Notes: generated by a model from the letters alone, not told the origin. A stretch of DNA of 32,000 nt from Synechococcus elongatus PCC 6301 (GCF_000010065.1 NC_006576.1:210001-242000), one strand, 5' to 3'. Shown: positions 6,509 through 27,608, numbered from the stretch's first letter. Numbers and translations: made by a program.

Positions 6509-6739
6509 CTGCCTAAATCAGACGCAAGCTACCGCGAGCCGCCGACAGGTTGACTGCTGATTGAGCTTGTCTTGGCAATGGGCTGGAGCGATCGAGCTTC
6601 TCAACGGAGGAGGAGTCATTGACAGGCCCAATGGCATTACAGATTACGAGTGCCAGCTAGCAAAAATGCGCTTACTCTGGCTGTGGGTGTTGAGTTTCGA
6701 CTCCCAGGTATCACATTAGTGCCACAGAGTACTAGCTCC

Positions 6740-7438: not shown

Positions 7439-7503
7439 ACAGGCAACCGGCGATTAGGGCCTCTTACGACCTATTTTCAGTTTTTAGAGTGCATTGCCCC
7501 CTA

Positions 7504-7522
7504 AGAGGGTCTTAGAGGGTCT
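7504..7522. repeat. Tandem direct repeat AGAGGGTCT-t-AGAGGGTCT
   Basis: Read directly from the sequence at 7504-7512 and 7514-7522, next to the stop of the 44-aa ORF. Confidence 0.9.
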
Positions 7523-7523
7523 G

Positions 7524-7658
7524 TTATTGATAATTGACCGCCAGAAAAATAACATCGCCCTGCTCAGGGCCACGGGTCGTAAAACCAGCGATACCGTGCT
7601 CCAAGCAAAGGCGATAGTTGCTCAGGGACTTACCGCAATGAAGAATGCGATAAGCCAT
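7524..7658 (-). CDS. 44-aa ORF below the track cutoff, possibly the N-terminal remnant of a PUA/EVE-like protein
   Basis: My translation is MAYRILHCGKSLSNYRLCLEHGIAGFTTRGPEQGDVIFLAVNYQ*. An AGGA lies 9 nt upstream of the ATG. The ORF sits 38 nt downstream of the preceding minus-strand gene. A tandem 9-10 bp repeat follows the stop immediately. Confidence 0.25.
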   Translation of the reverse strand: MAYRILHCGKSLSNYRLCLEHGIAGFTTRGPEQGDVIFLAVNYQ

Positions 7659-7696
7659 TGGCTTAAATCCTGAGGATGGGGATTGGCGATCGATCG

Positions 7697-8113
7697 CTAG
7701 TATTTGCGGGGATTAAAAATCTGCGCGATTCTCTCACCGATCGCCGTCAGAGGATTGGGAATCTTCAGCTTCGGCTCTTCGTAGGCCTTGATCGGCTCGT
7801 CTTTGAATTCCTTCAACCGATAGCCAAATTCCAACACCTCTTGCTTGCGCAGCGGCGGGAAAAGACGACCTGCTGCCTCTTGGAGTTGCGCTTGGTTATC
7901 ACGAATGGCGTAGTTGACTAGGTCAACCCGTTTGACGGCAATCACACCGACAGGAAACCATTGCTCTTTGCCAGGAATTCGCACATAGATCTCGAAGTCC
8001 GGAGTTCCCTCACGGGTCATGCGATCGTAGGTTTGCGCCGCTTCGGCTCGCTTGCGGGCTGCCTTAGAAGGCTGCTTTTTTTGGGGTTGTTCCGGCGCAA
8101 ATCCTTTGGCCAC
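7697..8113 (-). CDS. Conserved hypothetical protein, possibly related to plant HHL1 (unverified)
   Basis: This is the ORF 7697..8131, whose track start is a TTG. The GTG at 8111-8113 gives (M)AKGFAPEQPQKKQ.... The core PDFEIYVRIPGKEQWFPVGVIAV...NYAIRDNQAQL...RLFPPL resembles a cyanobacteria/plastid-conserved family. That assignment is from memory only. Confidence 0.5.
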   Translation of the reverse strand: MAKGFAPEQPQKKQPSKAARKRAEAAQTYDRMTREGTPDFEIYVRIPGKEQWFPVGVIAVKRVDLVNYAIRDNQAQLQEAAGRLFPPLRKQEVLEFGYRLKEFKDEPIKAYEEPKLKIPNPLTAIGERIAQIFNPRKY

Positions 8114-12921: not shown

Positions 12922-13713
12922 ATGAATACAGCCTCTGATCCCTGGTGGGTTCAACAGTGGCTGGATTTGATCAATGCCTATCGCTTCAAGAAACGCTTGG
13001 AGCGAGGTTGGCGCTATGCCCGCGAAGGTCATGTCCTCAGCATTTGCTTCCAAGGGCAAAAAGTGGAGGCGAAGGTTCAAGGGACTGAAGCGAAGCCCTA
13101 TCGAGCCTCGCTTTGGCTGGATCCAATCAGTGAGGAGGACTGGGGCTACGTCATTTCAGCCTTGGCGACTGAGGCCCGTTGGTCAGCACTGTTGTTAGCA
13201 GGCGAAATGCCCGCCGACATCGAGACGGTGTTCGCCCGTAATGGTTTGCGCCTTTTCCCGTTTAGCCTCAGTGATGTCCACTCGCGCTGTAGCTGTCCAG
13301 ATAAAGCCAACCCTTGCAAGCATGTCAGCGCTATCTACTACCTGCTTGGCGATCGCTTTAGTGAAGATCCCTTCGTGCTTTTTCAGCTCCGGGGACGGCA
13401 ACGACAGCAGCTACTAGAGGAATTGCGATCGCGTCGCCAAGCTAGCCTTCAACCAACGCCAGAAGTCTCTGCTGCACCAGTTCCTCAGCTGCAGCAATTT
13501 TGGGATTACGCCGATCCCCTTGACCCAGAGCTGGTGATTATCACGCCCAGTCTCGGCGACACAGTGCTTGGACAATTGGGTTCTTTGCCCCTTGCGAGCG
13601 ATCCTCGTTTAGAGACCAGCGCTGCGCAGCTACTAGTGCAATTGCGGCAGCTCTATGAGGATGTTGCTCAGTCAGTTTTCTTGGAATCTATGGCATCAGC
13701 AGGCGATCGCTGA
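12922..13713 (+). CDS. SWIM zinc-finger family protein
   Basis: It carries the CSCPDKANPCKHVSAIYY motif (CxCx(n)CxH SWIM signature) and an N-terminal WWVQQWLDLI...RGWRYAREGHV region typical of COG4279-like proteins. I prefer the ATG at 12922 to the TTG at 12904. Confidence 0.8.
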   Translation: MNTASDPWWVQQWLDLINAYRFKKRLERGWRYAREGHVLSICFQGQKVEAKVQGTEAKPYRASLWLDPISEEDWGYVISALATEARWSALLLAGEMPADIETVFARNGLRLFPFSLSDVHSRCSCPDKANPCKHVSAIYYLLGDRFSEDPFVLFQLRGRQRQQLLEELRSRRQASLQPTPEVSAAPVPQLQQFWDYADPLDPELVIITPSLGDTVLGQLGSLPLASDPRLETSAAQLLVQLRQLYEDVAQSVFLESMASAGDR

Positions 13714-13736
13714 GCCATTTTTCAGGATCAGCAGTA

Positions 13737-13746
13737 TAGTCATTGC
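13737..13746. repeat. Left copy of the 10-bp direct repeat TAGTCATTGC, at the left composition boundary
   Basis: Exact 10-mer read directly from the sequence, 24 nt after the SWIM gene stop. The second copy is at 24462-24471. Confidence 0.9.
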
Positions 13747-13989
13747 AGCTAATCCGCTATTCAACGGCTTTCCTCTTTCCCTGTCTTAAGCAAAGGCTTC
13801 TAAAGCTCACAATAAATAGACAGCAGCTAACTGCGTAACAAGCAAAAATGAGTGCGGTTAGACATGCGGACTTTACACAAAGTATTCCAAACTACCTAAC
13901 AGCAGCTCTTTGGTGTCAATTTTTGTTGATGGGGTGGAATTGGCTAGCGATCGCTCCAACCCTAGCAGTTAAACTCCCCCTAAGCACCT

Positions 13990-14009
13990 TCTAGCTCAGC
14001 AGAGCTAGA
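13990..14009 (+). promoter_or_regulatory. Perfect 8-bp stem with a 4-nt loop (TCTAGCTC-agca-GAGCTAGA), 20 nt upstream of the sensor gene ATG
   Basis: The inverted repeat was read directly from the sequence. Its function is unknown; it could be a 5' leader structure or an operator. Confidence 0.4.
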
Positions 14010-14029
14010 TATGTGAACTGTTAGCGAGA

Positions 14030-15940
14030 ATGTCAAGAATCATGAGCATACGTTTTTTAATTATCGAGGCGTATCTGCATGTATTGGCCTTTGCGTTAAT
14101 CATCACAGGCCTCATTGGGTTAGTCGGCTACCCTGATGTCCAACACTTAACCTTTCATAGTTTAGTTCTGCCATTAGATAGTTCACTCTTATTACTATTA
14201 CTTGGTGGGCTGCTACTTAGCGCAGTTTATCGCGCAGGAAAGCTGCTAAAAGCCTTGATGTTCTTGTTGATAATCACCGTAGTGTACGGCACCACAAGGA
14301 ATTGGTTGGTTGGAGAGCCAGAAACAAATTTCTCGTTTATCAGTGAATTTATTCGGGTTAGAACTGCTTTTGTTATCACGTCCTTGATAAGTAGTCTTGC
14401 TTTTTCTTGGAGTCTAGAATCACGTCTAACTAAGCGACGAGCTTACTTTACTGGTGTTGGTATTATTTTGCTTTCAAGCACATCATTGCTGTCTGACTTA
14501 TTTTGGGCTCCAGAAGCTACTAGCTTGAGATATGATTTTTCGTCAATTTATGTTGTCAATTTCTTGAGTATTTTACTGAGCATTAGTGTTATTTTATTGG
14601 CGCCTAGATCACATCAGAGTCTCAGCAGCCCCGGAAGAATTCCTGTTTTAGCAGGCTTATTGGGAGTGATGTTAACCTGCATCACTTGGTATTTGCTCAG
14701 CTTGCAAACTATTAGCTTTATCAATCAGCAAAGTGACATTTTACTGGCTAAAGTCCAGAGCAGCACCGAGCGGGCATTATCCAATCGACTAGCACTCATT
14801 CAACGAATGAGCGAGCGCTGGGAAGCGCTAGGAAGCTTACCCACTCAAGCCTATTGGCAGCAAGAAGCCAAGAGTTACCTTCGTGACTTCCCGAATCTAC
14901 AGTGGGTGGGAGTATTCGATTCTGAGATACAGCCCTACTGGCTGGTGGGACGTACAGATAAGGCTGCAGAGTGGTTGCCTCGGTTCAGAGCTGAACAGAA
15001 TCAACAAGTTTGGTTCCAGCAAACCTTAGCCTCTAGGTCTACCTCACTCAGCCCGGTATTCACTCTTCCTGACAACCCAAGTACCTATGTCTTGCTTGCT
15101 AGCCCGCTGAACTTACCGAATCACCCCCCCCGCTTAATTGCTGCCGGCCTCAGTCTTCAGGGCATTATGCGTGACCTTATTGGGACAGATTATGACCAGT
15201 TTGTTCTGGCTCTATTTCAAGGCGATCAACCAATCTACCGCTCAGCTCTCCTATCTAATCAAGACTTGAAGAGTAGGCCTATTAACGATCGCAATATTAT
15301 TTTGAGCAATGGGAAAAGTTGGAAATTAGTGGCCTATGTCAGTAACCCAGCCGCATTTTCAACGGCACGTTTACTATCTGTCTTGGTGATGGCATTTGGC
15401 TTGTTGCTGAGCTTTTTTCTCATGCTTAGTCAACGATTAGCAAGAATTGCTACAGAACGTGCAAAATATCTACAACAAGCGAATAAAAACTTGCAAGCCA
15501 GTCTGGAAAGCCAAGCCTTTGCTCAAGCCCTCAACCAGCGCATCATGGAATTCACTATGGATGTGCTTTGTTCCTTTGATCGCGAGGGGCGCTTTCTCGA
15601 AGTTAGTCCATCGTGTCTTAAGTTATTTGGCTATAGTCCAGAAGAACTGAATGGCCGCCCCTATTTAGAACTAGTCTTGCCTGAAGATCGGGATTTAACA
15701 ATTCAGGAAGCCCAGCAGTTGATGACCGGTCGGCCAACCTATAACTTTCGCAATCGCTATCGTCATAAAGATGGTCATGTTATACACATTCTTTGGTCTG
15801 CTGACTGGTCTGAAACTGATCAAGTGTTATTTGCAGTTGCTCATGATATTACGCCACTTGTTCAGAACGAAGCCTTTGCTAATCGTCAACGCGATATTTT
15901 GAGCTTGATTTCCCTTGATCGCCCCCTGACAGAAATATAG
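14030..15940 (+). CDS. Multi-pass membrane sensor protein: about 7 TM helices, an extracytoplasmic domain, a TM helix, a coiled coil, a PAS domain and the first helix of a GAF domain (636 aa). It ends at an in-frame TAG.
   Basis: Hydrophobic segments occur through residues ~7-224 and ~449-468. The PAS domain reads MDVLCSFDREGRFLEVSPSCLKLFGYSPEELNGRPYLELVLPEDR...HKDGHVIHILWSA...AVAHDIT. The tail RQRDILSLISLDRPLTEI looks like the start of a GAF domain. This is the most AT-rich gene in the window. Confidence 0.75.
   Translation: MSRIMSIRFLIIEAYLHVLAFALIITGLIGLVGYPDVQHLTFHSLVLPLDSSLLLLLLGGLLLSAVYRAGKLLKALMFLLIITVVYGTTRNWLVGEPETNFSFISEFIRVRTAFVITSLISSLAFSWSLESRLTKRRAYFTGVGIILLSSTSLLSDLFWAPEATSLRYDFSSIYVVNFLSILLSISVILLAPRSHQSLSSPGRIPVLAGLLGVMLTCITWYLLSLQTISFINQQSDILLAKVQSSTERALSNRLALIQRMSERWEALGSLPTQAYWQQEAKSYLRDFPNLQWVGVFDSEIQPYWLVGRTDKAAEWLPRFRAEQNQQVWFQQTLASRSTSLSPVFTLPDNPSTYVLLASPLNLPNHPPRLIAAGLSLQGIMRDLIGTDYDQFVLALFQGDQPIYRSALLSNQDLKSRPINDRNIILSNGKSWKLVAYVSNPAAFSTARLLSVLVMAFGLLLSFFLMLSQRLARIATERAKYLQQANKNLQASLESQAFAQALNQRIMEFTMDVLCSFDREGRFLEVSPSCLKLFGYSPEELNGRPYLELVLPEDRDLTIQEAQQLMTGRPTYNFRNRYRHKDGHVIHILWSADWSETDQVLFAVAHDITPLVQNEAFANRQRDILSLISLDRPLTEI
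15938..15940 (+). other. The only stop codon (TAG) separating two same-frame ORFs of the sensor kinase
   Basis: The ORF starts 14030 and 15956 are both 2 mod 3. The reading is ...ACA GAA ATA TAG ACG GCC ATT TGC GCA ATG GTA.... Confidence 0.95.
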
Positions 15941-15955
15941 ACGGCCATTTGCGCA

Positions 15956-18900
15956 ATGGTAGAGGAGTTCAATCCGAGCACTTACTGCTCAATTTTGCGC
16001 CTCGATCGGGAGACTCAACAGATTTGGACAGTCGTAGCTCCCAGCCTGCCCAAAGAGTATTGCCAAGCGATTGATGGCGCCACAGTGGGGCCAAACACGG
16101 GAAGTTGCGGGGCAGCTATTTTCCGGCGGCAACCTGTTCTCGTTGCGGACATCGAATCGGATCCGCTTTGGGCAAACGACCGCGATACTGCTCTCATCCA
16201 TGGCTTGCGGTCTTGCTGGTCGTTTCCCTTGATTGCTCATAATGGGCAAGTTCAAGGGACATTAGCAGTCTATCAACCATTTCCACAGACACCCTCGGAA
16301 GATCAACTGCAGCAGTGTCTCACCGTGGCACAGTTAGCAGCGATCGCGTTCGCCCGATCACTCGACCGCCAACAACTTCAAGATAGTGAGCAGCGTTTTC
16401 GATCCCTGTTTACCTTCAACCCTGATGCCGTCTACTCATTTGACTTGCAGGGTATCTACCAGAGCATGAATTCTGCTGGCTTCGAAATTTTGGATCGACA
16501 AGCTGATCAAATCATCGGTAAGCATTTTTCAGATGTTGTTATCTCAGAAGACCTTGAAAAATGTCAACAGCATTTTGACCAAGCTTGCAAAGGAGAGGCG
16601 CAGCACTATGAAATAAGGATTAACGGCAGAAACGGTCAACTCTTTTACTTAGATGTTAGTAAATTTCCGATTGTTGTAAACAACAAGATTGTTGGAGTTT
16701 TTGGTATTGCCAAAGATATTACTCAGAGAAAGCAAATTACTGCTGATTTACAACAGGCTTTGATGCAGAGTAATAAGCAGACAGAGCAGCTTCGTCGTTT
16801 AGGAAATGCTGCGATCGCTACTGCAGAGCTCCAAGACCATCAAGAATTGGTCAAATATCTTGTGGAACAAGTTCGGCTTACCATTAGGGCTCACCAAGCC
16901 GTTATTAGTTTAACTCGATGTGATGACTGGAGTCAGTCAATCAATGCTATCTCTCTCTCTGATAAATATGCTGCTTGGAAGAACTATGATGAACTATCCA
17001 CTGGCGAAGGTATTTACACCCTCATTTGCGAAACGAATCAGCCCTTGGTTCTAACTCAAGAAGAGCTTGAAAAACACCCTCGCTGGCGAGGATTTGGCGA
17101 CCAAGCAGATAAGCATCCTCCCATGCGAGGCTGGTTGGCTGTACCTCTGTTCGATCCCAATGGCCGCAATCTCGGTGTCCTTCAGCTCTCTGATAAAGAG
17201 GAAGGCGAATTTGATGATGATGATCTAGCGATCGCCCAGCAATTTGCACAGATGACAGTGGCGGTTTTGGAAAATAACCGGCTCCTCAATGAGGTGCTCA
17301 CTGCTGAACAACAACTGAAGGAGCAGTTGAGCTTCAACTCTACAATCACGGACTGTATGGCTGAGGGACTGTTGGCCGTTGATGAACGTGGCAAATTAGC
17401 TTTTGCCAATCCAACGGCGCAGGAGTGGCTGGCAATCGACAAGTCAGAACTTTCGCAACAATCCCTCGACCAACTCCTACCACTAGATCTGACTGCTTGG
17501 AATCAAGGAGGAGTTGGCAATCAAGGGGAGTTGAAGCTTAAAGGACGGATTTTGCAGTACGAAGCCCGTCCCTTAGTAGGCCCCGTAGCAGAGAGAGGTT
17601 GGGTTTTAGTCCTCCACGACGTTACAGCCCAGCGTCAAGTTGACCAAGCCATGCGGGAGCGAGACCAGTTTTTTAGCCTTTCCCTCGAGATGTTCTGCAT
17701 GGTCGATTTACGAGGGCGTTTCATTCAGGTCAATCCAGCCTTTGCTGCAACCCTTCGCTACAGTACCGCTGAGCTCGTTGGTCGCCCCTATCTCGAGTTG
17801 GTCGATTTGGGCGATCGCAGTCAGATCGCGACTACAATTCGCCGGTTGAAAGCCGGGCTTCTCATCCACGATCTAGTCATCCGCGTCTGGGACAAAGCAG
17901 GTGAGTTACACTGGCTACAAATCAGTGCAGCCCTCGGGGACGATCGCGTCATCTATTGCGTAGCCCGCGACGTTACAGAGCAACGAGCTATTCAAGAGCA
18001 AATCCTTCAGCAAAACCTACTGCTAAGAATGGCTGGGCAGACTGCCAAGCTGGGCGGCTGGAGCGTTGAGCTACCCAGTCGAGAAGTGATTTGGTCGCCA
18101 GAAACCTTTAGTTTGCTGGGTTTTACTGATGAAGATGAACCCGATTTGGAGGAAGCCCTTAGCCTCTATCCCCCTGCGGAGCGAGCCCTAGTCACAAAGG
18201 CGCTAGAGGACTGTATTCAGCAGGGAATTAGCTTTGATTTTGATGTAGCTGTTCACAATACTTCTGGCTTCCTGCTCGATGCACGAGTGACGGGGCAAGC
18301 CGTTCGTGATGAAACTGGAGCGATTGTAAGAATCTCGGGGGCATTTCAGGATGTTAGCGATCGCAAACGGGCCCAACGTGAGGCTCAGCGACTGGCGGAT
18401 CGGCTACGAACCACGCTTGAAAGCATTACTGATGGCTTTTATACCCTCGATGAAAACTGGCGATTTAGCTACCTCAATCAGGAGGGTGCTCAGCAGCTGG
18501 GCGTCAATGTAGAAGAAACGCTAGGCCAAATGGTCTGGACTGCTTTTCCTGGGTCCTACGAGAGCGAACTCGGCCATATTTATCGGCAAGCGATTGCTAC
18601 GGGCGAAGCCGCTCATTTTGAGACCTACTATGAACCCTTCGGCCGGTGGTTTGAAGTCCATGCTTACCCTTCTGAAGACGGTTTGGCAGTCTACTTCCGC
18701 GATGTTTCAGAACGTCGGCAAACCGAACAAAATTTACGGATTACGCTGCGAGAGCTAGAGCGCAGCAACCAGGAGCTGCAGGAATTTGCCTTTGTTGCCT
18801 CCCACGACCTTCAGGAGCCACTGCGCAAAATTCAGGCTTTCTCGGATCGCCTCATTGCTCGGACCAGCAACCTAGATGATGAATCTCAGGATTATCTGAG

Positions 18901-19453
18901 GCGTATGGCCTCTGCAGCAGGACGAATGCAGACCTTGATCATCGATTTGTTGAACTACTCCCGTGTCAACACTCGGGGTCTGCCCTTACAGCCCTTATCC
19001 CTCGACCAAGTACTCGACGATGTCTTGGTCGATATGGAAGCTAGTCTCGATCAGGCCTCTGCGATCGTGGAGCGGCAGCCCTTGCCAACTATCCAGGGTG
19101 ACGCCGGTCAGTTTCGCCAGGTTTTCCAGAATCTGTTGAGTAATGCCCTGAAATTTCAGTCAGCAGACAACCAACCATTAATTCAGATTTACAGTGAGCT
19201 GACAGAGGCTGGGCAATTGAGGTTGTGCATCGCTGATAATGGCATTGGATTCGATGAGAAGTATCTAGACCGAATTTTCAACCCCTTCCAGCGCTTACAT
19301 AGTCGCGATGCCTATGCTGGTACAGGGATTGGACTAGCGATCGTCAAAAAAATCATTGAGCGCCACGGCGCGACGATTACTGCAAAGAGTATCCCCGGAC
19401 AAGGTAGTGTATTTTTCATTACTTTTCCTGTAACTGAAAAAGATTTCCGATGA
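15956..19453 (+). CDS. Multi-sensor histidine kinase: (partial) GAF, PAS, GAF, four PAS domains, HisKA, HATPase_c (1165 aa)
   Basis: GAF1 reads APSLPKEYCQAIDGATVGPNTGSCGAA...DIESDPLW...GLRSCWSFPL. GAF2 reads RGWLAVPLFDPNGRNLGVLQLSDKEEGEFDDDD. Several PAS cores end in D(V/I)T/S..R motifs. The H-box is FAFVASHDLQEPLRK with the His codon at 18803-18805. The ATPase N, G1 and G2 boxes are LLSNALKF, DNGIGF and GTGIGLAIV. Confidence 0.88.
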   Translation: MVEEFNPSTYCSILRLDRETQQIWTVVAPSLPKEYCQAIDGATVGPNTGSCGAAIFRRQPVLVADIESDPLWANDRDTALIHGLRSCWSFPLIAHNGQVQGTLAVYQPFPQTPSEDQLQQCLTVAQLAAIAFARSLDRQQLQDSEQRFRSLFTFNPDAVYSFDLQGIYQSMNSAGFEILDRQADQIIGKHFSDVVISEDLEKCQQHFDQACKGEAQHYEIRINGRNGQLFYLDVSKFPIVVNNKIVGVFGIAKDITQRKQITADLQQALMQSNKQTEQLRRLGNAAIATAELQDHQELVKYLVEQVRLTIRAHQAVISLTRCDDWSQSINAISLSDKYAAWKNYDELSTGEGIYTLICETNQPLVLTQEELEKHPRWRGFGDQADKHPPMRGWLAVPLFDPNGRNLGVLQLSDKEEGEFDDDDLAIAQQFAQMTVAVLENNRLLNEVLTAEQQLKEQLSFNSTITDCMAEGLLAVDERGKLAFANPTAQEWLAIDKSELSQQSLDQLLPLDLTAWNQGGVGNQGELKLKGRILQYEARPLVGPVAERGWVLVLHDVTAQRQVDQAMRERDQFFSLSLEMFCMVDLRGRFIQVNPAFAATLRYSTAELVGRPYLELVDLGDRSQIATTIRRLKAGLLIHDLVIRVWDKAGELHWLQISAALGDDRVIYCVARDVTEQRAIQEQILQQNLLLRMAGQTAKLGGWSVELPSREVIWSPETFSLLGFTDEDEPDLEEALSLYPPAERALVTKALEDCIQQGISFDFDVAVHNTSGFLLDARVTGQAVRDETGAIVRISGAFQDVSDRKRAQREAQRLADRLRTTLESITDGFYTLDENWRFSYLNQEGAQQLGVNVEETLGQMVWTAFPGSYESELGHIYRQAIATGEAAHFETYYEPFGRWFEVHAYPSEDGLAVYFRDVSERRQTEQNLRITLRELERSNQELQEFAFVASHDLQEPLRKIQAFSDRLIARTSNLDDESQDYLRRMASAAGRMQTLIIDLLNYSRVNTRGLPLQPLSLDQVLDDVLVDMEASLDQASAIVERQPLPTIQGDAGQFRQVFQNLLSNALKFQSADNQPLIQIYSELTEAGQLRLCIADNGIGFDEKYLDRIFNPFQRLHSRDAYAGTGIGLAIVKKIIERHGATITAKSIPGQGSVFFITFPVTEKDFR

Positions 19454-19905
19454 GGCCCAAGACCGTGCACATTCTGATTGCAGATGATGATCAAGACGAT
19501 TGCTTGATGACACGGGAGGCCTTTAAAGAGTGCAGGATCGCCAACCCCCTCCACTTTGTCCATGATGGCGAAGCCCTCTTGGATTACCTCAAACGGCGCT
19601 CTCCCTATACTGATGACCAGCGTTTTCCTTTGCCGGGGCTCATTCTTCTCGATCTCAATATGCCGCTGAAAGATGGCCGCGAGGCACTCGCTGAGATCAA
19701 ATCCGATCCAGAATTACGATCAATTCCAGTCGTTATTTTAACGACCTCATCAGCTGACGAGGATATTTTGCACAGCTACAACATTGGTGTTAATTCTTTC
19801 ATCACGAAGCCTATTAGTTTCTCGGGCTTGATAGAGGTAATCTGCGCTTTGGGTCGTTACTGGCTAGATATCGTTGAGTTGCCAAGCGAGAACCGCGGAG
19901 CATGA
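19450..19905 (+). CDS. Single-domain CheY-like response regulator (Rcp1-like receiver)
   Basis: It carries HILIADDDQDD, LILLDLNMP (phospho-acceptor Asp codon at 19651-19653), ILTTS and FITKP. Its ATG overlaps the kinase stop (ATGA at 19450-19453). Confidence 0.9.
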   Translation: MRPKTVHILIADDDQDDCLMTREAFKECRIANPLHFVHDGEALLDYLKRRSPYTDDQRFPLPGLILLDLNMPLKDGREALAEIKSDPELRSIPVVILTTSSADEDILHSYNIGVNSFITKPISFSGLIEVICALGRYWLDIVELPSENRGA

Positions 19906-22691
19906 CCTATAGCGAAGTTCACTGGCGGTTGCTCTTGGTCGATGATGATGAGGATGATTTCATCATCACCCGTGACTTACTGCGCGATGCTCAACAGGCA
20001 CAGATCCAGTTGGACTGGTGCTCCGACTTCCAAGAAGCATTGGCAACAATGGGCCGCCAAGAGCATGACGTATATTTGGTGGACTATCGACTGGGTGCTG
20101 AATCAGGATTAGACCTGATTGACCAAGCAATTCAGGCTGGGATTACCCGACCTATTATTTTGCTGACGGGGCAGGGGAATGAACAGCTTGATGCCTCTGC
20201 AATTGAACTTGGGGCTGCCGATTATCTGGTCAAAGGACAGCTAGATTGTCAGCAATTGCTGCGCAGCATTCGCTATGCCATCGATCGCAATTTAGCAACG
20301 ACTCGTCTGGCGGAAAGTGAATCCCGTTATCGGTTGCTATTTGAAGCTAATCCAGAACCGATGTGGGTTTTTGCCAAACAAGGGTTGCAGTTTTTGGCGG
20401 TTAATCAAGCAGCTTCTCAATTTTTTGGCTACAGCCAGCAAGAATTTCTTGCCATGACGGTTTTAGATATCCAGAGTGAGGAGGAAAAAACACGTTTTTT
20501 GCAGTTTTTTGAATCGTTAATCTGCAATCAAATTGTTGATCCTGCTGTGGGAGTTTGGGCTTATCGACATAAACAGGGGCATCTAGTATTTGCTGATGTT
20601 CTCATCCATGACTTTGAGTTTGACAACCAACCCTGCTGCCTTATTTTAGCAATTGATATCACCGAAAAACAAGCTGCACGGGAGTTAGCCCATCAGCGCG
20701 AACAGGCTTTTCGGAAGCTACTGAATGACAATCGGGATCCACTACTAGTGATTTCAGGCGATCGCAGGATTTGCTATGCCAATCCTGCAGCCCAAAAATT
20801 ACTAAAGTTGAATTTAGAACAATTAGAATCTCAATCTTTAGATCTACCGCTACTGAGTGACAAGCTTACTGAGTGGGCCTTGACGTTGCCTGATGGCAGC
20901 GTAGCAGAGGTAGAGATTCATCGTTCAGAAACTGATTGGGAAGGACAGCCTGCAGACCTGCTCTCACTTCGAGATATTGCTGAGCGTAAGGCATCAGAAC
21001 AGCAGCTTCGTTTGCTCAAAGAAAGTCTCGAAGCGAGCTTCAACGGTGTTGTTATTGTAGATGCAATCGAACCTGACATGCCTGTGATCTATGTCAATCC
21101 AGCCTTTGAGCGAATCACGGGTTATTCTGAAGCTGAAATGCTAGGCAGAAACTGCAGAATATTACAAGGCAATGAGCGTGACTCTCTCCAAATTGAAGAA
21201 ATTCATCGCGGTCTCAGTCAGGCTGAAAATGTTCATGTAGTCATCCGTAATTTTCGAAAAGACGGCCAACCATTCTGGAATGATCTCTATATTTCGCCTA
21301 TTTTTAATGCACAAGGTAATGTCACTCATTTCATTGGAGTACAAAACGATATTACAGAGCAAAAACGCTACGAGGAAGAACTAAGCTTCAGTGCTAGCCA
21401 CGACGTTCTCACAGGTTTACCAAATCGTGCTGTGCTCGAAGACCGCTTACGGCAGGGTTGCAAGATGGCCCTTCGCCAAAAGCATAGCCTTGCCATCCTC
21501 TTCATTGACTTAGATGGATTCAAATTAATCAATGACTCTATTGGCCATCGCTCAGGTGACTTGCTACTTGTTGAAGTCGCTCAGCGCATGTGTGAACAAG
21601 TGCGGGCGGGTGACACAGTTGCACGTATCGGAGGAGACGAATTTATCATTCTTTTAGTTGATTTAAAACTTGAAAATGATGTTATTTCAATTGCCGATCG
21701 CCTACTTGCTAGTGTTGCTCGTCCCTATCATATTCAAGGAATTTATCTGCATGTAACGGCCAGTATGGGGATCACCCTGAGTGACGGTGATATTGAACAA
21801 CCCACTCAGTTGATCCAACAAGCTGATCTGGCAATGTACAAGGCTAAGCAAGAAGGTCGCAATAATTATCAGTGGTATACCAACGACCTAAACCTACGGC
21901 TACGCGAACGAGTTCATCTACGCAATGAGCTGCAAAAGGCAATTGAGACAGAAGCCTTTGAGTTGTACTTTCAGCCCAAAATAGAGGGTTGTAGTGGGCA
22001 AGTGATCGGTCTGGAAGCCTTGTTGCGTTGGCAACATCCCCAAATGGGATTTATTTCTCCTGCCACATTTGTACCGATCGCCGAGGATACTGGGCAAATA
22101 ATTCCCCTGAGCCAATGGGTTTTGGAGACTGCTTGTCGACAGCTCCGAGACTTATTACAGCAAGGAATAGCAGCCCCATCCGTAGCAGTTAATATCTCAA
22201 CCGTTCAATTTCGACGCATTAACTTCGTTAAGAGTGTTCAATCTGCTTTGCAAAAGTATCAGCTTAAGTCAGAACATTTAGAGATAGAGATTACTGAGAA
22301 TGTTTTGTTTGACAACACCGAGAAAGCGATCGAGAAATTGCAGCGACTCAAAGAATTAGGAGTAAATATTTCGATCGATGACTTTGGAACTGGATTTTCA
22401 AGTCTGAGCTACCTTAAAGAACTACCCATTGATACTGTCAAAATCGACCGCTCATTCGTCCAAGAGATCAACACTGACTCTCGTGATGCAGCTATCACCC
22501 AAGGAATCATTTCGATGGCTCACCACCTGCGACTCAATGTTGTTGCGGAAGGGGTTGAGACTGAGCAACAGTTCAAGTTTCTCCAGCAGAGCAACTGTGA
22601 CCAATACCAGGGCTATTATTTTGCCAAACCGATGCCCTTCGAAGCATTGAAGCAATATTTAATGGATGAAGCTGCGCGCGAACTTCCATAA
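19902..22691 (+). CDS. REC-PAS-PAS-LOV-GGDEF-EAL protein (929 aa); c-di-GMP turnover enzyme gated by phosphorylation and blue light
   Basis: The receiver has LLLVDDDEDD and VYLVDYRLG (Asp codon at 20082-20084). Two PAS domains follow. The LOV motif is GRNCRILQG. The GGDEF motif RIGGDEFIIL is intact (21630-21644). The EAL motif GLEALLRW is intact (22014-22022), with a downstream DDFGTG. Its ATG overlaps the preceding stop (ATGA at 19902-19905). Confidence 0.9.
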   Translation: MTYSEVHWRLLLVDDDEDDFIITRDLLRDAQQAQIQLDWCSDFQEALATMGRQEHDVYLVDYRLGAESGLDLIDQAIQAGITRPIILLTGQGNEQLDASAIELGAADYLVKGQLDCQQLLRSIRYAIDRNLATTRLAESESRYRLLFEANPEPMWVFAKQGLQFLAVNQAASQFFGYSQQEFLAMTVLDIQSEEEKTRFLQFFESLICNQIVDPAVGVWAYRHKQGHLVFADVLIHDFEFDNQPCCLILAIDITEKQAARELAHQREQAFRKLLNDNRDPLLVISGDRRICYANPAAQKLLKLNLEQLESQSLDLPLLSDKLTEWALTLPDGSVAEVEIHRSETDWEGQPADLLSLRDIAERKASEQQLRLLKESLEASFNGVVIVDAIEPDMPVIYVNPAFERITGYSEAEMLGRNCRILQGNERDSLQIEEIHRGLSQAENVHVVIRNFRKDGQPFWNDLYISPIFNAQGNVTHFIGVQNDITEQKRYEEELSFSASHDVLTGLPNRAVLEDRLRQGCKMALRQKHSLAILFIDLDGFKLINDSIGHRSGDLLLVEVAQRMCEQVRAGDTVARIGGDEFIILLVDLKLENDVISIADRLLASVARPYHIQGIYLHVTASMGITLSDGDIEQPTQLIQQADLAMYKAKQEGRNNYQWYTNDLNLRLRERVHLRNELQKAIETEAFELYFQPKIEGCSGQVIGLEALLRWQHPQMGFISPATFVPIAEDTGQIIPLSQWVLETACRQLRDLLQQGIAAPSVAVNISTVQFRRINFVKSVQSALQKYQLKSEHLEIEITENVLFDNTEKAIEKLQRLKELGVNISIDDFGTGFSSLSYLKELPIDTVKIDRSFVQEINTDSRDAAITQGIISMAHHLRLNVVAEGVETEQQFKFLQQSNCDQYQGYYFAKPMPFEALKQYLMDEAARELP
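21027..21365 (+). other. LOV (flavin-binding, blue-light) PAS domain with the adduct-forming cysteine
   Basis: The domain reads VVIVDAIEPDMPVIYVNPAFERITGYSEAEMLGRNCRILQG...RNFRKDGQPFWNDLYISPIFN..GNVTHFIGVQNDITE. The Cys codon TGC is at 21153-21155. The canonical LOV motif is GRNCRFLQG. Confidence 0.85.
21390..21880 (+). other. GGDEF (diguanylate cyclase) domain; boundaries are approximate
   Basis: It contains HDVLTGLPNR ... FIDLDGFKLINDSIGH ... RIGGDEF ... ADLAMYKAKQEGRN. A possible RxxD I-site was not assessed. Confidence 0.85.
21918..22647 (+). other. EAL (c-di-GMP phosphodiesterase) domain; boundaries are approximate
   Basis: It contains FELYFQPK...GLEALLRW...EITE...DDFGTGFSSLSYLK...KIDRSF...AEGVET...QGYYFAKP. 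The catalytic motifs appear intact. Confidence 0.85.
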
Positions 22692-22716
22692 TTTTTGCTG
22701 AACACCTATCTTAGGG

Positions 22717-24213
22717 TCATTGGGCAGTACCCGAACTCTTTAGCGAAGCGGCAGTTGGCGCTCTTCTGGGGCGGAGCACTGAAATTACAGCACCCACCAA
22801 TCCTAGTGTTGCAGCCAATTGAAAAGCAGACCGCTGTGCACTCAAAAATGCCTCTAATTGAAACCCGCTCAGCCGCACGCCTGCTGCTCCTGCTAGAGCA
22901 TCTCCCGCACCAGCTGCACTGAGCCCTTGGGCTAGGAGTGTTGCTGCGATCGCTGCTCCAATCGCCTGCCCAAAGTTGCGTGATGTCGACAAGAATCCGT
23001 TAGCAACGCTGAGATTTTCCGGTGGGACCTGATTGAGCGTGGCTGTGTTGTTAGGGGGATTGAATAGACCGCCACCCATGCCTTGCAGTATCAACGGCGC
23101 AATGATTGCAGTCGAGGATGCGTTGGCGCCCAATGAGGACAAGCCGAGCAAGGCAACGCTAACGCAGAGCAGACCTATGGTGCTGAGAGTCCGAGCACTA
23201 AAGCGATTACCTAGGCGACCGATCGTTAAACTTGTAACCGTAATCGCCACTGAGAGCGGGATCAGCAGAACACCCGCCATAACCGGCGATAGCCCCAACA
23301 CGAGCTGAGCGTATAGGGGTAGGAAAAAGTAGCAGGATACTGCCGAAACAAAGTAAAAAGCAGCCGAAGCAGAGCCGCACGTAAATGCTCTAGATCGAAA
23401 TAGGCTGAGGTTTAGCAGAGGCTGCCGGACACGCTGTTCTACAAACACGAACAAAAGCAGCGCGACCACTCCTACCGCCAAGAGCAGCAAGCTGGAGGGG
23501 TTTAGCAAATTCTTTGAGAGTTCTTCAACGAAGATAAAGGGTGCACTTGTAGCCCCAATAGCAAGGAGAGCTCCTATCCAGTCCAATGATGCTCGGCCTT
23601 GAGTTCGGGAACGCAATTTTAGAATCCCTATGCTCAAGATCAGTCCGAGCAGGCTCACCAGCAGGATGATTAGAAAGAGCGATCGCCAGCCAAATTGAAC
23701 AATAAAGAGTCCGCCAAGAACCAGTCCTGTGACCTGAGAAAGAGCCAAGACCGAAGCATTAACAGCCATTGCCTTACGTTGATCTTGCTTGGGAAAGACA
23801 GCAGTGATTTCAGCCATCACGTTTGCTAAAACTAGCCCGCCACCAATGCCTTGAATGACTCGGCAAGCAATGAGTATCTTGACTGTCGGCGCCAGCATGC
23901 AGAGCCAAGCGCTGATGAAAATAACACTCATGCCGATAACAACGATGCGTTTACGGCCCCAAATATCCGCTAGTCGACCAGCGGGTAGCAGCGTCACCGT
24001 CACCGCGAGTAGGTAAGCAACAACCACCCATTTAAGAATGGGAAGGCCAACATCGAAATGACGCGCCATCGCAGGCAGGGCCAGGGTGACAATGAACCCA
24101 TCCATGTACACTACGAAGTTGCCGCATTCCACTGCTGCTAACGCCCACCAACAGTGATTCTCACCTTGGGTACCGCTCCAAAAATCCCGGATTTTTTGAA
24201 TGATTTGATTCAT
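22717..24213 (-). CDS. MFS transporter, DHA2 (EmrB/QacA-like, ~14 TMS) drug:H+ antiporter family
   Basis: The protein is 498 aa and hydrophobic throughout. MFS motif A reads GRLADIWGRKRIVVIG. The length and TMS count fit DHA2. It converges on the GGDEF-EAL gene with a 25-nt gap. Confidence 0.85.
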   Translation of the reverse strand: MNQIIQKIRDFWSGTQGENHCWWALAAVECGNFVVYMDGFIVTLALPAMARHFDVGLPILKWVVVAYLLAVTVTLLPAGRLADIWGRKRIVVIGMSVIFISAWLCMLAPTVKILIACRVIQGIGGGLVLANVMAEITAVFPKQDQRKAMAVNASVLALSQVTGLVLGGLFIVQFGWRSLFLIILLVSLLGLILSIGILKLRSRTQGRASLDWIGALLAIGATSAPFIFVEELSKNLLNPSSLLLLAVGVVALLLFVFVEQRVRQPLLNLSLFRSRAFTCGSASAAFYFVSAVSCYFFLPLYAQLVLGLSPVMAGVLLIPLSVAITVTSLTIGRLGNRFSARTLSTIGLLCVSVALLGLSSLGANASSTAIIAPLILQGMGGGLFNPPNNTATLNQVPPENLSVANGFLSTSRNFGQAIGAAIAATLLAQGLSAAGAGDALAGAAGVRLSGFQLEAFLSAQRSAFQLAATLGLVGAVISVLRPRRAPTAASLKSSGTAQ

Positions 24214-24425
24214 GGTGAGTGATGATTGGATGATGGACTTTGCAAATCGTGCAAGAGCGGCTACGACAGAAAAAGCGTAGGCAACTTAGAACAATAAAAC
24301 CTCCAAGCTCTTTAGTTATTGAATTGCTATCAAGAACTAAAATACTGAGATTTCGTAGCGAATATAACTAACCCAAAGCTAGCCACTTTAACTATCTAGC
24401 AACCCTAACTCTTACCAACAAACTG

Positions 24426-24439
24426 GAAGAAATTTCTTC
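24426..24439. promoter_or_regulatory. Perfect 14-bp palindrome GAAGAAATTTCTTC in the AT-rich region upstream of the MFS gene
   Basis: Read directly from the sequence, about 213 nt upstream of the MFS ATG. It could be an operator, but no regulator gene lies adjacent. Confidence 0.3.
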
Positions 24440-24461
24440 AGAAAGATCTCGTGCTTGGTCG

Positions 24462-24471
24462 TAGTCATTGC
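24462..24471. repeat. Right copy of the 10-bp direct repeat TAGTCATTGC, at the sharp right composition boundary
   Basis: Exact 10-mer. G+C by hand count jumps from 21/60 (24301-24360) to 36/60 (24481-24540) across it. Confidence 0.9.
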
Positions 24472-24719
24472 TCTATCAGCAACAAGGAGCTTCACTGCGT
24501 CAGGCCCAACAGGCTGCCCCGATCCTCAGACTTCACCAGGATGGAATGAGGATTCTCGAACCGCTGCGATCGCTAGACATAGCAGTTCTTCGTTTTGAAG
24601 AGAGCTCAGTTATCGATGACGACTGGTCCCGCTGGAGTCAGCCAAGGATTTCGGCATGGAGGATGCGATCCCTGAGCAGGCAGGGACTGAGGATGTGTCG
24701 CCTAGTCGTGGTGTGGAAA

Positions 24720-25388
24720 TTACAACTGGGTGAGGCTGAAGCGATCGCTGACAGCAACGAGACCAAACAGGGCATCAACGAGAAGAGTACCGAGCAGGGC
24801 ACCCGCAAAGGCCCAATGGGCAGGATGGGTGCGGCGCAACGCCCAAATGCCAGCTCCGCAGAGGAGTGAGATCAAGGCGATCGCCCCAATAAGAGCGTTG
24901 GGTGTTTGCAAACAGGCGATCGCTTGCTGAGCAAGGGGCAGAGCTTCCGCAGGGGTACTACGAGCGATTTCGCGCCAGAACGGTACTGCACCAATCCAGT
25001 AGAAGTAACCGTCGGTGATCGCTGTCCCAATCAAAGAACCCAGGTAGAAGCCATGACCGACCAGGCCTTGCTGGCGGCGTAAACCTGCAATCACAAAGGG
25101 CAGGGCGATCGCTTCAACGGGTAAATGAAGATAGGGCTCCCAACGCAACCAGCCCCAGTAAATCGAACCCGCCAGCCAGCTCCAAGCGAACCCCTGGAGT
25201 AAGTCTCCCCAGCCCTGCCAGCGCGACTGGCGCTGCAATAGGCCTGCGATCGCGAACCAGAGCACACTGATCAGCAAACTGGCTTCGGGACAAACTCGAA
25301 CTAAGGGAGCTTGAACGAAAACAGGGACGGAGACCAGAAAGGTTGCGGCCCAAAGTTTTGTCCAAGGGCGCGGCGCAGCCAAAACCAT
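24720..25388 (-). CDS. Conserved cyanobacterial integral membrane protein (I recall this as DUF3120-like; unverified)
   Basis: From the ATG at 25386-25388 the protein reads MVLAAPRPWTKLWAATFLVSVPVFVQAPLVR..., with 6 or more TM segments. The track start at 25445 is a TTG. Confidence 0.55.
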   Translation of the reverse strand: MVLAAPRPWTKLWAATFLVSVPVFVQAPLVRVCPEASLLISVLWFAIAGLLQRQSRWQGWGDLLQGFAWSWLAGSIYWGWLRWEPYLHLPVEAIALPFVIAGLRRQQGLVGHGFYLGSLIGTAITDGYFYWIGAVPFWREIARSTPAEALPLAQQAIACLQTPNALIGAIALISLLCGAGIWALRRTHPAHWAFAGALLGTLLVDALFGLVAVSDRFSLTQL

Positions 25389-25543
25389 GTCCCGTGACAG
25401 CAGCCGGACAAGGGTATCGGCAGGTGGACGGGACGTGACAACCAAGGGAAGCAGACGCCTTCTAAGAAACTTTATTTTTATTCACATTAGCAGAGATTAT
25501 CGCGACGAAAAGACCCACCAGAGCGTCTTTGGGACTGAGCCTT

Positions 25544-25565
25544 GTCCGAGGCGATCGCCTCGGAC
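25544..25565. repeat. Perfect 22-bp palindrome GTCCGAGGCGATCGCCTCGGAC centred on a HIP1 site, 73 nt downstream of acs
   Basis: Read directly from the sequence. It could form an 11-bp hairpin on either strand, but no U-tract follows. Confidence 0.85.
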
Positions 25566-25637
25566 TGTCATCGCAGATCAATCAACTACCTGCAGGAATT
25601 GTGCTCTAGGAGCGATCGATTGCTCCAACCGCGCTTC

Positions 25638-27608
25638 CTAAGTGCCTTGACGCAGCTTATCGAGCACCGAGCGATCTTCCAAGGTGGAAGTGTCGCCCGA
25701 AACTTCTTGACCAGCGGCGAGACTGCGCAACAGACGGCGCATAATCTTGCCCGATCGCGTTTTGGGCAGCGCCTCACTGAAGCGAATTTCATCGGGACGA
25801 GCGATCGCGCCAATTTCTTGGGCGACGTGTTTCTTCAGGTCTTTAACTAACTCATCGCCAGTCTCAATGCCCGATTCCAGCGTGATGAAAGCAACAATGC
25901 CTTCACCTTTGAGATCGTCAGGCCGACCGACAACTGCAGCTTCGGCAACTGCCGGATGGGAGACCAAGGCCGACTCAATTTCCATCGTGCCGAGACGGTG
26001 ACCTGAGACATTGATCACGTCATCGACGCGCCCCATCACCCAGAAATAGCCATCGGCATCGCGGCGCGCGCCATCGCCGGCGAAGTAGAGATACTGGCCA
26101 TTTTGCGGAGGAATATGCTCCCAATAGGTGCGACGGAAGCGATCGGGATCGCCGTAGACCGTGCGCATCATGCCTGGCCAAGGATGGCGAATCACCAAGT
26201 AGCCACCTTCGTTATCCGGCACCGATCGCCCATCCAGATCGACAACGTCTGCCAAGATGCCCGGGAAAGGTTTAGTGGCAGAGCCCGGTTTGGTCGGCAC
26301 GGCTCCCGGCAGCGACGTAATCATATGGCCGCCCGTTTCGGTCTGCCACCAGGTATCGACAATCGGGCAGCGATCGCCACCAATGACGCGGTGATACCAG
26401 ATCCAAGCTTCGGGATTGATGGGCTCTCCGACGGTGCCCAACAGTCGCAATGAGGAGAGGTCGCGAGCGGCGGGATGCTGCTCACCCATTTTGATGAAGG
26501 CGCGGATCGCTGTTGGGGCTGTGTAGAAGGTCGTAACGCCATACTTTTCAATCACATCCCAGAAGCAACCGGGATTAGAAGCGCGGGGGGCACCCTCATA
26601 CATCAGTGTGGTCGCACCGTTGGAGAGCGGCCCGTAGACGATGTAGCTGTGACCGGTAATCCAGCCGACGTCCGCCGTACACCAGTAGACATCGGTATCC
26701 TGCAGGTCAAAAGTCCACTGGGTGGTGATGTGGGCGTAGAGGTTGTAACCGCCGGTGGTGTGGACGACACCCTTGGGTTTGCCGGTGCTACCGGAGGTGT
26801 AGAGCACGAAGAGCAGATCTTCGCTGTCCATCGGCTCCGCCGGACAGGTAGCGCTGACGGTCTGTTGCAGCTCATGCCACCAATGGTCGCGCCCCGGTTC
26901 CATGTGGATGTCTTGCTTCGTCCGTTCCACCACGAGGACATGCTGGACGCTGGGGCAGGCATTGCCTTCCAGGGCTTGATCAACAGAATCCTTGAGGGGC
27001 ACGATCGCATCTTTGCGCCAGCCACCATCCGCCGTGACAACCAGCTTGGCTTGGCCATCCACCAAGCGATCGCGCAGTGCTTCCGCACTAAAGCCCCCAA
27101 AGACAACGCTATGCACTGCGCCAATCCGCGCACAGGCCAGCATGGCGATCGCCGCTTCGGGAATCATCGGCATGTAAACGCCAACGACATCACCTTTTTG
27201 AATGCCCAAGGATTTGAGCACGTTGGCGAACTGACAGACCTCGCGATGCAGTTGCGCGTAGGTCAGCGTCCGTGAGTCACCGGGTTCGCCTTCCCAGATA
27301 ATCGCCGCTTTATTTTTGCGCCAAGTCGTCAAGTGGCGATCGAGGCAGTTGTGGGAAATATTGAGTTTGCCACCGACAAACCACTTCGCAAACGGCGGAT
27401 TGCTCCAGTCCAGCGTCTGTTGCCAAGGCTCAAACCAGTCCAGCTCCTGAGCTGCCAATTCGCCCCAAAAAGCCACCGGATCGGCCGCCGCTTTCTGGCA
27501 GAGCGCTTCGTACGCTTCGGGATTGATTCGCGCCGCACTGGCAAATTCTGCCGAGGGAGGAAAAACCCGCTTCTCTTGGAGGATCGACTCGATCGTTGGC
27601 TGGCTCAT
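25638..27608 (-). CDS. acs: Acetyl-CoA synthetase (acetate-CoA ligase), 656 aa
   Basis: It carries [18 protein letters not shown]..., the AMP-binding motif [19 protein letters not shown], and a C-terminal [11 protein letters not shown]. The match to the Acs family is full length. Confidence 0.95.

Follow-up and report, generated by a model that had tools for sequence, protein, structure and literature searches.

The question raised by this locus is how a long block of AT-rich DNA came to lie among genes of host-like composition in Synechococcus elongatus, and where that block begins and ends. The window analysed here is a stretch of 32,000 nucleotides of S. elongatus PCC 6301 (GCF_000010065.1, NC_006576.1:210001-242000), and all positions below are window coordinates. 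A first-pass annotation had taken positions 13737-24471 for an acquired island bounded by an exact 10-bp direct repeat (TAGTCATTGC), resembling a target-site duplication or an att-like repeat. We are confident, short of certainty, that the locus instead holds a lineage-specific insert of two parts, a Pseudomonadaceae-type signalling module and a cyanobacterial-type transporter gene of the major facilitator superfamily (MFS) with its presumed promoter region, placed between the convergent genes for a SWIM zinc-finger protein and a DUF3120 protein, and that the 10-bp repeat is coincidental. The idea of an acquired island survived for the three signalling genes, which are foreign by phylogeny and gene order and absent from the sister clade; the repeat-bounded unit 13737-24471 did not.

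The low G+C content and low density of highly iterated palindrome 1 (HIP1, GCGATCGC) in the segment are genuine and beyond chance. G+C in 1-kb windows is 0.43-0.53 across ~13.5-24.5 kb and 0.55-0.60 on either side, and a recount of the four 60-nt windows counted by hand in the first-pass annotation returned the identical values of 35, 23, 21 and 36. HIP1 sites number 36 to the left of 13737, 9 within 13737-24471 and 27 to the right, with none in 14030-15940 and one in 19902-22691, all as tallied before; the windowed scan that had been suggested as a check displayed both the low G+C and the HIP1 shortage. At the published rate for the PCC 7942 genome (7402 sites per 2.70 Mb, 2.75 per kb; Delaye et al., 2011, PMC3025956), 29.5 sites are expected in 13737-24471 against the 9 seen (Poisson P = 1e-5). 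The three-gene signalling module within it holds 6 against 23.8 expected (P = 1.6e-5), or ~0.7 per kb. Module G+C is 0.47 and G+C at third codon positions (GC3) 0.42-0.55; the corresponding values in the flanks are 0.56 and 0.55-0.66.

The true borders were read from the presence and absence of the segment within the S. elongatus group, for which PCC 7942-type strains, an 11.2-kb contig from run SRR27453603 (L088), and two PCC 11801-like genomes labelled S. elongatus (GCA_036630115.1 and GCA_050422935.1, loci L001 and L002; hereafter the 11801 clade) were compared. The segment is variably present at one site: PCC 7942-type strains, UTEX 3055 and L088 carry it, and the two PCC 11801-like genomes lack it. 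In L001 and L002 the SWIM gene is followed by the convergent DUF3120 gene, the two stop codons being ~17 bp apart, and the four segment genes are absent. By blastn, the window is homologous to L001 up to 13711 and again from 24722, which places the indel at 13714-24719, 11,006 bp from stop codon to stop codon. When the GGDEF-EAL and MFS proteins were used as queries, no part of the two genomes yielded an 11801-clade ortholog; one that was 80-90% identical would have stood among the first entries for each query. The first-pass annotation had predicted an empty site joining the SWIM gene to DUF3120 and acs through a single TAGTCATTGC; the clean SWIM-DUF3120 junction was found, but it contains no TAGTCATTGC, and narB-nrt-nirA stands in place of acs.

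The elements of the locus that carry this comparison are listed here one per line.

12922-13713, plus strand: SWIM zinc-finger gene (Pfam SWIM), the native left flank.
13714-14029: left junction intergenic region, G+C 0.44, with the left copy of the 10-mer at 13737-13746 and one HIP1 site at 13947.
14030-19453, plus strand: multi-sensor PAS/GAF histidine kinase gene (Pfam PAS, GAF, HisKA, HATPase_c), first gene of the module.
19450-19905, plus strand: stand-alone receiver-domain response regulator gene, 151 aa (Pfam Response_reg), second gene of the module.
19902-22691, plus strand: gene for a REC-PAS-GGDEF-EAL protein of 929 aa (domains by Pfam), third gene of the module.
22717-24213, minus strand: MFS transporter gene of EmrB/QacA type, 498 aa (Pfam MFS_1; Synpcc7942_1354).
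24214-24719: right junction intergenic region, made up of an AT-rich part at 24214-24461 (G+C 0.40), the right copy of the 10-mer at 24462-24471 and a spacer at 24472-24719.
24720-25445, minus strand: DUF3120 gene (Pfam DUF3120, E = 1e-79), the native right flank.

From 2922 to 23713 the window aligns without gaps to PCC 7942 (CP000100.1 1387087-1407878, reversed), with 11 mismatches in 20,792 bases (99.95% identity). Judged by coordinates and two papers, the PCC 7942 locus tags would be Synpcc7942_1352 for acs, 1353 for DUF3120, 1354 for the MFS gene, 1355 for the REC-PAS-GGDEF-EAL gene, 1356 for the response regulator, 1357 for the kinase and 1358 for SWIM. The SWIM protein is 100% identical to an S. 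elongatus protein (P0001) and 83% identical to its 11801-clade ortholog, the DUF3120 protein is 89% identical to the L001 ortholog that abuts SWIM there, and flanking genes differ from those of the 11801 clade at ~18-26% of nucleotides.

The left junction region, 13714-14029, presumably comprises the promoter and 5' region of the kinase gene; it has no counterpart in L001 or L002, and L088 aligns to the left junction only at 13861-13936 and from 14004 on. In the right junction region, 24214-24719, no gene is called in PCC 7942 or UTEX 3055. Its AT-rich part, 24214-24461, is the presumed promoter region of the MFS gene, and the spacer at 24472-24719 has a host-like G+C of 0.55 and one HIP1 site. 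Rfam at E <= 1 over 13000-25600, junctions included, gave no structured RNA match, and promoter-like and terminator-like sites in the junctions were at or below the shuffle expectation. A 133-aa open reading frame (ORF) at 24468-24869 on the plus strand, with a TTG start at the right 10-mer, was treated as spurious: it has no Pfam match, runs antisense into the 3' end of the DUF3120 gene, and is called in only one of four assemblies (as a 107-aa gene), being uncalled in PCC 7942 and UTEX 3055.

The three genes of the module, in which the response regulator gene overlaps each neighbour by 4 bp, have the domains and catalytic motifs of a cyclic di-GMP (c-di-GMP) phosphorelay. The GGDEF-EAL gene (G+C 0.451, GC3 0.416, one HIP1 site) encodes a protein that keeps GGDEF with an RxxD I-site as well as EALLR, DDFGTG, EGVE, KID and QGY, and the H-box of the kinase is normal (SHDLQEP). 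Judged from these motifs, the module looks like a phosphorelay that would set c-di-GMP levels via a potentially bifunctional enzyme. The kinase gene (G+C 0.478, GC3 0.466 and HIP1 0.92 per kb in the window) is a single ORF of 1807 aa in PCC 7942; in PCC 6301 it is interrupted by an in-frame TAG at 15938-15940, which splits it into ORFs of 636 and 1165 aa. The codon is TTG (Leu) in PCC 7942, TAG here by a change at 15939, and CTA (Leu) in L088.

Differences cluster in this gene. Seven of the 11 between the window and PCC 7942 fall in 1.8 kb of the 5' part of the kinase gene (14123-15939), and at six of these seven L088 has the PCC 7942 allele, so that the window strain carries the derived base there. 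The cause may be a recombination tract, relaxed selection or errors made in sequencing an older assembly. In a further S. elongatus assembly (L003, Logan SRR19568448), a 1-bp deletion at the equivalent of window position 15124 splits the kinase into ORFs of 364 and 1428 aa, which would be a second, independent kinase inactivation, or an assembly error.

The ancestry of the module was traced mainly through the GGDEF-EAL protein, which shares 66-73% identity, along 99% of its length, with its top homologs from beyond S. elongatus. Among the 118 listed non-S. elongatus matches, every organism-named one is gammaproteobacterial (for example Pseudomonas, Halopseudomonas and Stutzerimonas), a count that covers only the matches carrying an organism name, the minority of those listed. 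The best 120 homologs include no named cyanobacterium apart from S. elongatus. When 107 full-length homologs were placed in a neighbour-joining tree, the three S. elongatus-type sequences grouped as a single tip cluster deep in a Pseudomonadaceae-type clade, in conflict with the species tree. Of 200 bootstraps on 48 taxa, all 200 recovered the S. elongatus cluster, 195 (97.5%) its nesting with 12 Pseudomonadaceae-type proteins, and 147 its sister group of Pseudomonas sp. MOB-449, Pseudomonas sp. RW405 and Halopseudomonas aestusnigri. Of the phylogenies that the first-pass annotation had proposed for the island proteins, that of the GGDEF-EAL protein thus bore out a foreign origin; the nearest relatives of the MFS protein, by database matches, are cyanobacterial instead.

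Gene order extends this result to the other two genes. Four loci of the sister group were compared (L089, which is Pseudomonas sp. MOB-449 contig JAMXMA010000045.1, and L090, L095 and L096), and in all four the kinase (~1800 aa), response regulator (151 aa) and GGDEF-EAL genes follow in the same order with the same 4-bp overlaps, preceded in each case by a gene for an RR-MshEN-T2SSE ATPase. Identity to L089 and L090 is 47-52% for the N-terminal part of the kinase, 64-65% for the rest, 82-84% for the response regulator and 72% for the GGDEF-EAL protein. The foreign origin of the kinase and the response regulator is thus backed by common gene order and 47-84% identity. The Pseudomonadaceae operon resembles the segment in the order, orientation, overlaps and domain architecture of its last three genes; it differs in that S. 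elongatus keeps these three genes only, without the MshEN-domain ATPase and the terminal REC domain. Taken together, the comparisons indicate a foreign, Pseudomonadaceae-type origin of the three signalling genes.

Upstream of the module, L089 (1-4144) and L090 (1-4147) have four co-oriented genes for a response regulator, a small Arf-like GTPase, a 377-aa kinase and the RR-MshEN-T2SSE ATPase, which look like a c-di-GMP-linked secretion or pilus ATPase system; MshEN has been described as a c-di-GMP-binding domain. A literature search found no work on the four-gene upstream cluster and no functional study of the Pseudomonadaceae operon.

That these genes are native, their low G+C and HIP1 density arising because selection on such large signalling genes of weak expression is relaxed or unusual, would fit the nonessential nature of the region, the inactivating kinase mutations in two strains, the net GC-to-AT drift seen in flank genes as well, and the point made by Delaye et al. 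(PMC3025956) that selection can also yield HIP1 scarcity. It is nevertheless extremely improbable, given homologs whose named members are all gammaproteobacterial, the well-supported nesting, an order, sizes and overlaps that are those of a Pseudomonas-type operon, and the lack of the genes in the sister clade. The opposite direction, from the S. elongatus lineage into Pseudomonadaceae, has nothing specific in its favour beyond the fact that similarity alone gives no direction. The module occurs with deep internal diversity in Pseudomonas, Stutzerimonas, Halopseudomonas, Metapseudomonas, Halomonadaceae, Oleiphilaceae and Alteromonadaceae, S. elongatus is a single nested tip cluster and the only cyanobacterium among named matches, and the proteobacterial genes are the tail of a longer operon with an extra domain, the S. 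elongatus fragment being the shortened one; a reverse transfer is hardly credible. The nested tip cluster and the possession of only the operon tail both point to transfer from a gammaproteobacterium into S. elongatus.

The edges of the foreign fragment support a truncated import. At ~1065 aa, the Pseudomonas-type GGDEF-EAL proteins are longer and have a second, C-terminal REC domain (residues 942-1052, as in P0125). In tblastn with the C-terminus of these relatives, homology ends at 22661 (...KQYL), just past the EAL domain; nine unrelated codons and a stop follow, and the MFS stop codon lies 25 bp beyond. Tblastn with the C-terminal REC domain and with the RR-MshEN-T2SSE protein, against both junction zones of the window and of L088, gave only noise past window position 22661, and the 316-bp left spacer holds no relic of the T2SSE gene. 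At the other end, the N-terminus of the kinase is conserved with its relatives from about residue 3-8. The proteobacterial DNA therefore spans ~14030-22661, or 8.6 kb. The module was probably cut from a longer operon, leaving behind the upstream RR-MshEN-T2SSE ATPase gene and the C-terminal receiver, and random breakage with illegitimate joining fits, because the right end of the fragment cuts through a gene.

The MFS gene, convergent with the GGDEF-EAL gene and 25 bp from it, has another history. Beyond the 7942 clade, its best matches are Cyanobium and freshwater Synechococcus proteins at 70-76% identity, with planctomycetes scattered lower, and it shows no conflict with the species tree of the kind seen for the GGDEF-EAL protein. 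The gene has a G+C of 0.523 and two HIP1 sites where 4.1 would be expected, a count that is not abnormal (P = 0.22); the composition is deviant for the module and not for the MFS gene alone. The earlier suspicion of a mosaic with an MFS gene nearer to host composition was therefore well founded, the ancestry of this gene being of a cyanobacterial type that differs from that of the module. Because most species trees make picocyanobacteria the sister group of S. elongatus, vertical descent would explain this affinity, and so would a second transfer among cyanobacteria.

Does the 10-bp repeat record how the DNA came in? TAGTCATTGC does occur exactly twice in the 32 kb, on the plus strand both times, at 13737-13746 and 24462-24471, and its left copy begins 24 nt past the last base of the SWIM stop codon, as first described. 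The two copies, however, sit about 24 and about 249 nt inside the indel breakpoints; with a breakpoint at 24719/24722, the right copy falls 249 bp short of the junction. Neither strand of L001 or L002 contains the word, and it is missing from the left junction of L088 as well, although L088 carries the island. The chance of a shared 10-mer had been put at ~0.01 for two 100-bp zones, for which the empirical figure is 0.02; when zones of the actual junction lengths (316 x 506 bp) are used, 11% of shuffles of those zones have a word of at least 10 bases in common, as do 28% of random zone pairs from the window, so that the original figure fails against a P of 0.11-0.28. The window contains 1588 direct exact 10-mer pairs. 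The jump in G+C at 24471, read before as the border of the island, instead marks where the AT-rich stretch ahead of the MFS gene (24214-24461) ends. With copies that lie off the breakpoints, are missing from both the empty site and the left junction of L088 and occur at chance level, an origin as target-site duplication or att-like repeat does not hold, and we conclude that the repeat is coincidental.

Nor were mobility features found. Pfam on the segment ORFs gave only PAS, GAF, histidine kinase, REC, GGDEF, EAL and MFS domains, in agreement with the first-pass annotation: there is no transposase domain and no recombinase or remnant in these ORFs, and the six-frame translations of the intergenic regions are full of stop codons. 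ARAGORN found no tRNA or transfer-messenger RNA (tmRNA) gene in the 32-kb window. Terminal inverted repeats were none of them convincing, the inverted matches between end zones being only HIP1-centred words (CTAGCGATCGC) generic to the genome, and the module edges (13714-14060 against 22640-22740) share no word longer than 8 bp. A megablast of the 11-kb indel at near-identity against 72,556 plasmids, phages not being searched, gave no match. The segment resembles integrase-mediated islands, integrative and conjugative elements (ICEs) and prophages in that conserved genes flank a strain-variable block of foreign composition, which has a short direct repeat close to either end; it differs from them in lacking an integrase, an excisionase and a target tRNA or tmRNA gene, and in repeats that lie off the breakpoints and are missing from the empty site. 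The hallmarks of a transposon or insertion sequence with target-site duplication are likewise absent.

A single ~10.7-kb island (13737-24471), inserted site-specifically or by transposition at TAGTCATTGC and later deprived of its recombinase, would account for a word that occurs only twice in 32 kb, directly oriented and near each low-G+C end, with the low chance found for 100-bp zones. It is very improbable. The breakpoints lie at stop codons, with about 23 and about 248 nt of lineage-specific DNA outside the repeats; neither the empty site nor the L088 left junction has the word, whose chance in zones of real size is substantial; no integrase, transposase, tRNA gene or terminal inverted repeat is present; and the content has two ancestries, hence insertion as a single unit is not required.

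How long the module has been resident can be gauged from L088, whose FrhB and SWIM proteins are 97% and 92% identical to those of the window (SWIM 83% for the 11801 clade), which makes L088 nearer to PCC 7942 than the 11801 clade is. At the same site, L088 carries the kinase, the response regulator, the GGDEF-EAL protein (931 aa, also without the extra receiver) and the C-terminus of the convergent MFS gene, inside which the contig stops, 114 bp past the GGDEF-EAL stop codon. Five of the six HIP1 sites of the window module are at orthologous positions in L088, which has five more, the window having one more. As five sites are common, the module had been resident long enough to gain HIP1 before the 7942/L088 split, and this gain is still continuing. 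The module thus entered before the PCC 7942/L088 split and then gained a few HIP1 sites, its G+C and HIP1 density still being low.

Nucleotide identity between L088 and the window is 79.5% in the module (14004-22691) and 86% in the flanks. Protein identities for the same pair range over 77-93% in the module and 92-97% in the flanks. The acquired genes seem to evolve faster, or under less constraint, than the flanks.

The source of the low G+C was approached through the relatives. Module G+C is 0.45-0.49 in the window, 0.49-0.50 in L088, 0.58-0.65 in L089/L090 and 0.49-0.53 in L095/L096. With base changes polarised on Pseudomonas-type outgroups, codon positions 1+2 show 129 GC-to-AT against 47 AT-to-GC changes on the window branch and 70 against 34 on the L088 branch; the module is not moving towards host G+C. 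Pure AT decay after transfer was considered as the cause of a module G+C below that of the host and of the Pseudomonas relatives, and set aside, the moderate-G+C modules of the closer relatives L095/L096 (0.51-0.53 for the module) offering something simpler: a donor of moderate G+C would account for most of the AT-richness, to which further GC-to-AT drift may add.

When the insert arose relative to the 11801 clade turns on gain or loss. We lean towards a late gain, after the split from that clade, because the module is still strongly unameliorated. Alternatively, the module (with or without the MFS gene) would be ancestral to the S. elongatus group and the 11801-like clade would have deleted the whole 11-kb block, the empty site being the scar. 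Gain and loss are both single events on the tree ((7942, L088), 11801), and five HIP1 sites predate the 7942/L088 split, so that the module is not very recent. The Cyanobium-type affinity of the MFS gene is expected under vertical descent if picocyanobacteria are the sister group, in which case this gene is native; the host-like spacer 24472-24719 with its one HIP1 site is missing from the 11801 clade too; and other rearrangements nearby distinguish the two clades. A native MFS gene together with this spacer would point to some deletion in the 11801 clade. Set against this, the composition of the module remains far from that of the host (GC3 0.42-0.55, HIP1 0.7 per kb) despite ~18-26% flank divergence between the clades, which points to ample time for amelioration, the deletion must have run exactly from stop codon to stop codon, and no outgroup keeps the local gene order. 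We regard ancestral presence with loss as the less probable course.

The surroundings bear on the same question. In the 11801 clade, narB-nrtABCD-nirA lies next to DUF3120 (L001:11699-20722), where the window has acs (25638-27608), and the upstream recR region is inverted and rearranged in that clade relative to the window; from these two differences, the neighbourhood has been reshuffled between the clades beyond the indel itself. Among 80 SWIM loci from other cyanobacteria, none has FrhB, DUF3120, the MFS gene or the module adjoining SWIM. These outgroup loci do not separate gain from loss, since the SWIM surroundings are unconserved outside S. elongatus.

As a separate observation, a second and milder G+C dip (0.51-0.52) lies at window positions 6000-8000, with a strongly negative AT skew at ~6.0-7.5 kb. 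The dip at 6.0-7.5 kb covers a MarC-family gene and adjacent small ORFs, and it too has no alignment to L001.

S. elongatus is naturally transformable. As there is no recombinase, tRNA gene or inverted repeat, uptake followed by illegitimate recombination is the likeliest route: foreign DNA would have been taken up and joined by illegitimate, or homology-facilitated illegitimate, recombination into a neutral spacer between gene ends. An insert in a neutral convergent spacer, with no recombinase, no target-site duplication and ends that cut across the operon and gene boundaries of the source, is what this process leaves; the difference is that for this insert the mechanism is assigned by exclusion. 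The data show directly the foreign ancestry, the common gene order, the missing domain, the empty site, the common HIP1 sites and the chance level of the 10-mer; how the DNA integrated, when it did so relative to the 11801 clade and what the module does are what we infer.

Several points weigh against the two-part, lineage-specific insert as we describe it. A mechanism arrived at by exclusion draws on missing signatures. A late insertion, and an earlier insertion followed by precise loss in the 11801 clade, each take one event on ((7942, L088), 11801). The right junction of L088 was not recovered, its contig ending in the MFS gene, and the ancestry tree is a neighbour-joining tree of one protein. 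The GC-to-AT excess of the module is not significantly stronger than that in flank genes (Fisher P = 0.30, 0.12) and may be inflated by G+C-rich outgroups. Finally, the donor is unsampled: the best relatives are 72% identical and most of them G+C-rich, and a moderate-G+C donor rests on two metagenomic contigs.

A rather unlikely extension of the two-part insert would make the SWIM/DUF3120 spacer a recurrent landing site, at which the truncated phosphorelay and the Cyanobium-type MFS gene entered independently and without a recombinase, the module having decayed since. The signs of decay would be the GC-to-AT drift, the protein divergence and independent kinase inactivations in different strains. 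If true, a model organism would offer a case, open to dating, of genes captured from another phylum by transformation and then slowly lost.

These results refine a known pattern. Delaye et al. (2011; BMC Genomics 12:25, PMC3025956) classed most PCC 7942 GGDEF genes as xenologs by G+C, HIP1 and phylogeny. On the G+C scale of their gene table, where 45.2% is -2 standard deviations (SD), 47.6% is -1 and 52.8% is 0, the GGDEF-EAL gene (45.1%) falls at ~-2, the kinase (47.8%) and response regulator (48.9%) at ~-1 and the MFS gene (52.3%) at 0. In the accessible text of that paper, a listing of genes 1355-1357 among the xenolog clusters could not be confirmed, and no donor or operon truncation is named there for the cluster; the work predates the 11801-clade genomes and has no empty-site comparison. 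Agostoni et al. (2013) reported that cyanobacterial c-di-GMP genes are inherited both vertically and horizontally. New here are the donor clade, the truncation of operon and domain, the 11801-clade empty site, the common HIP1 sites and the rejection of the repeat. The segment is an ordinary genomic islet, with no new mobile element or integration mechanism, and the general pattern was published in 2011.

For the biology of S. elongatus, the locus joins a dispensable region to a little-understood signalling system. Synpcc7942_1354-1358 is one of 23 nonessential regions >10 kb in PCC 7942 and has been deleted with full segregation (PMC10217888), and a 2026 paper states that it is not yet clear what the 20 c-di-GMP genes of S. 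elongatus do physiologically (PMC13001216). One of these 20, with its cognate kinase and receiver, is a recent, dispensable, Pseudomonas-like import that is absent from the fast-growing PCC 11801/11802 clade. This should be useful for interpreting c-di-GMP, biofilm and circadian phenotypes, for strain comparison and for planning genome reduction. The module also offers a worked example of HIP1 building up in place in foreign DNA, with five sites gained before the split of PCC 7942 and L088 and more after it.

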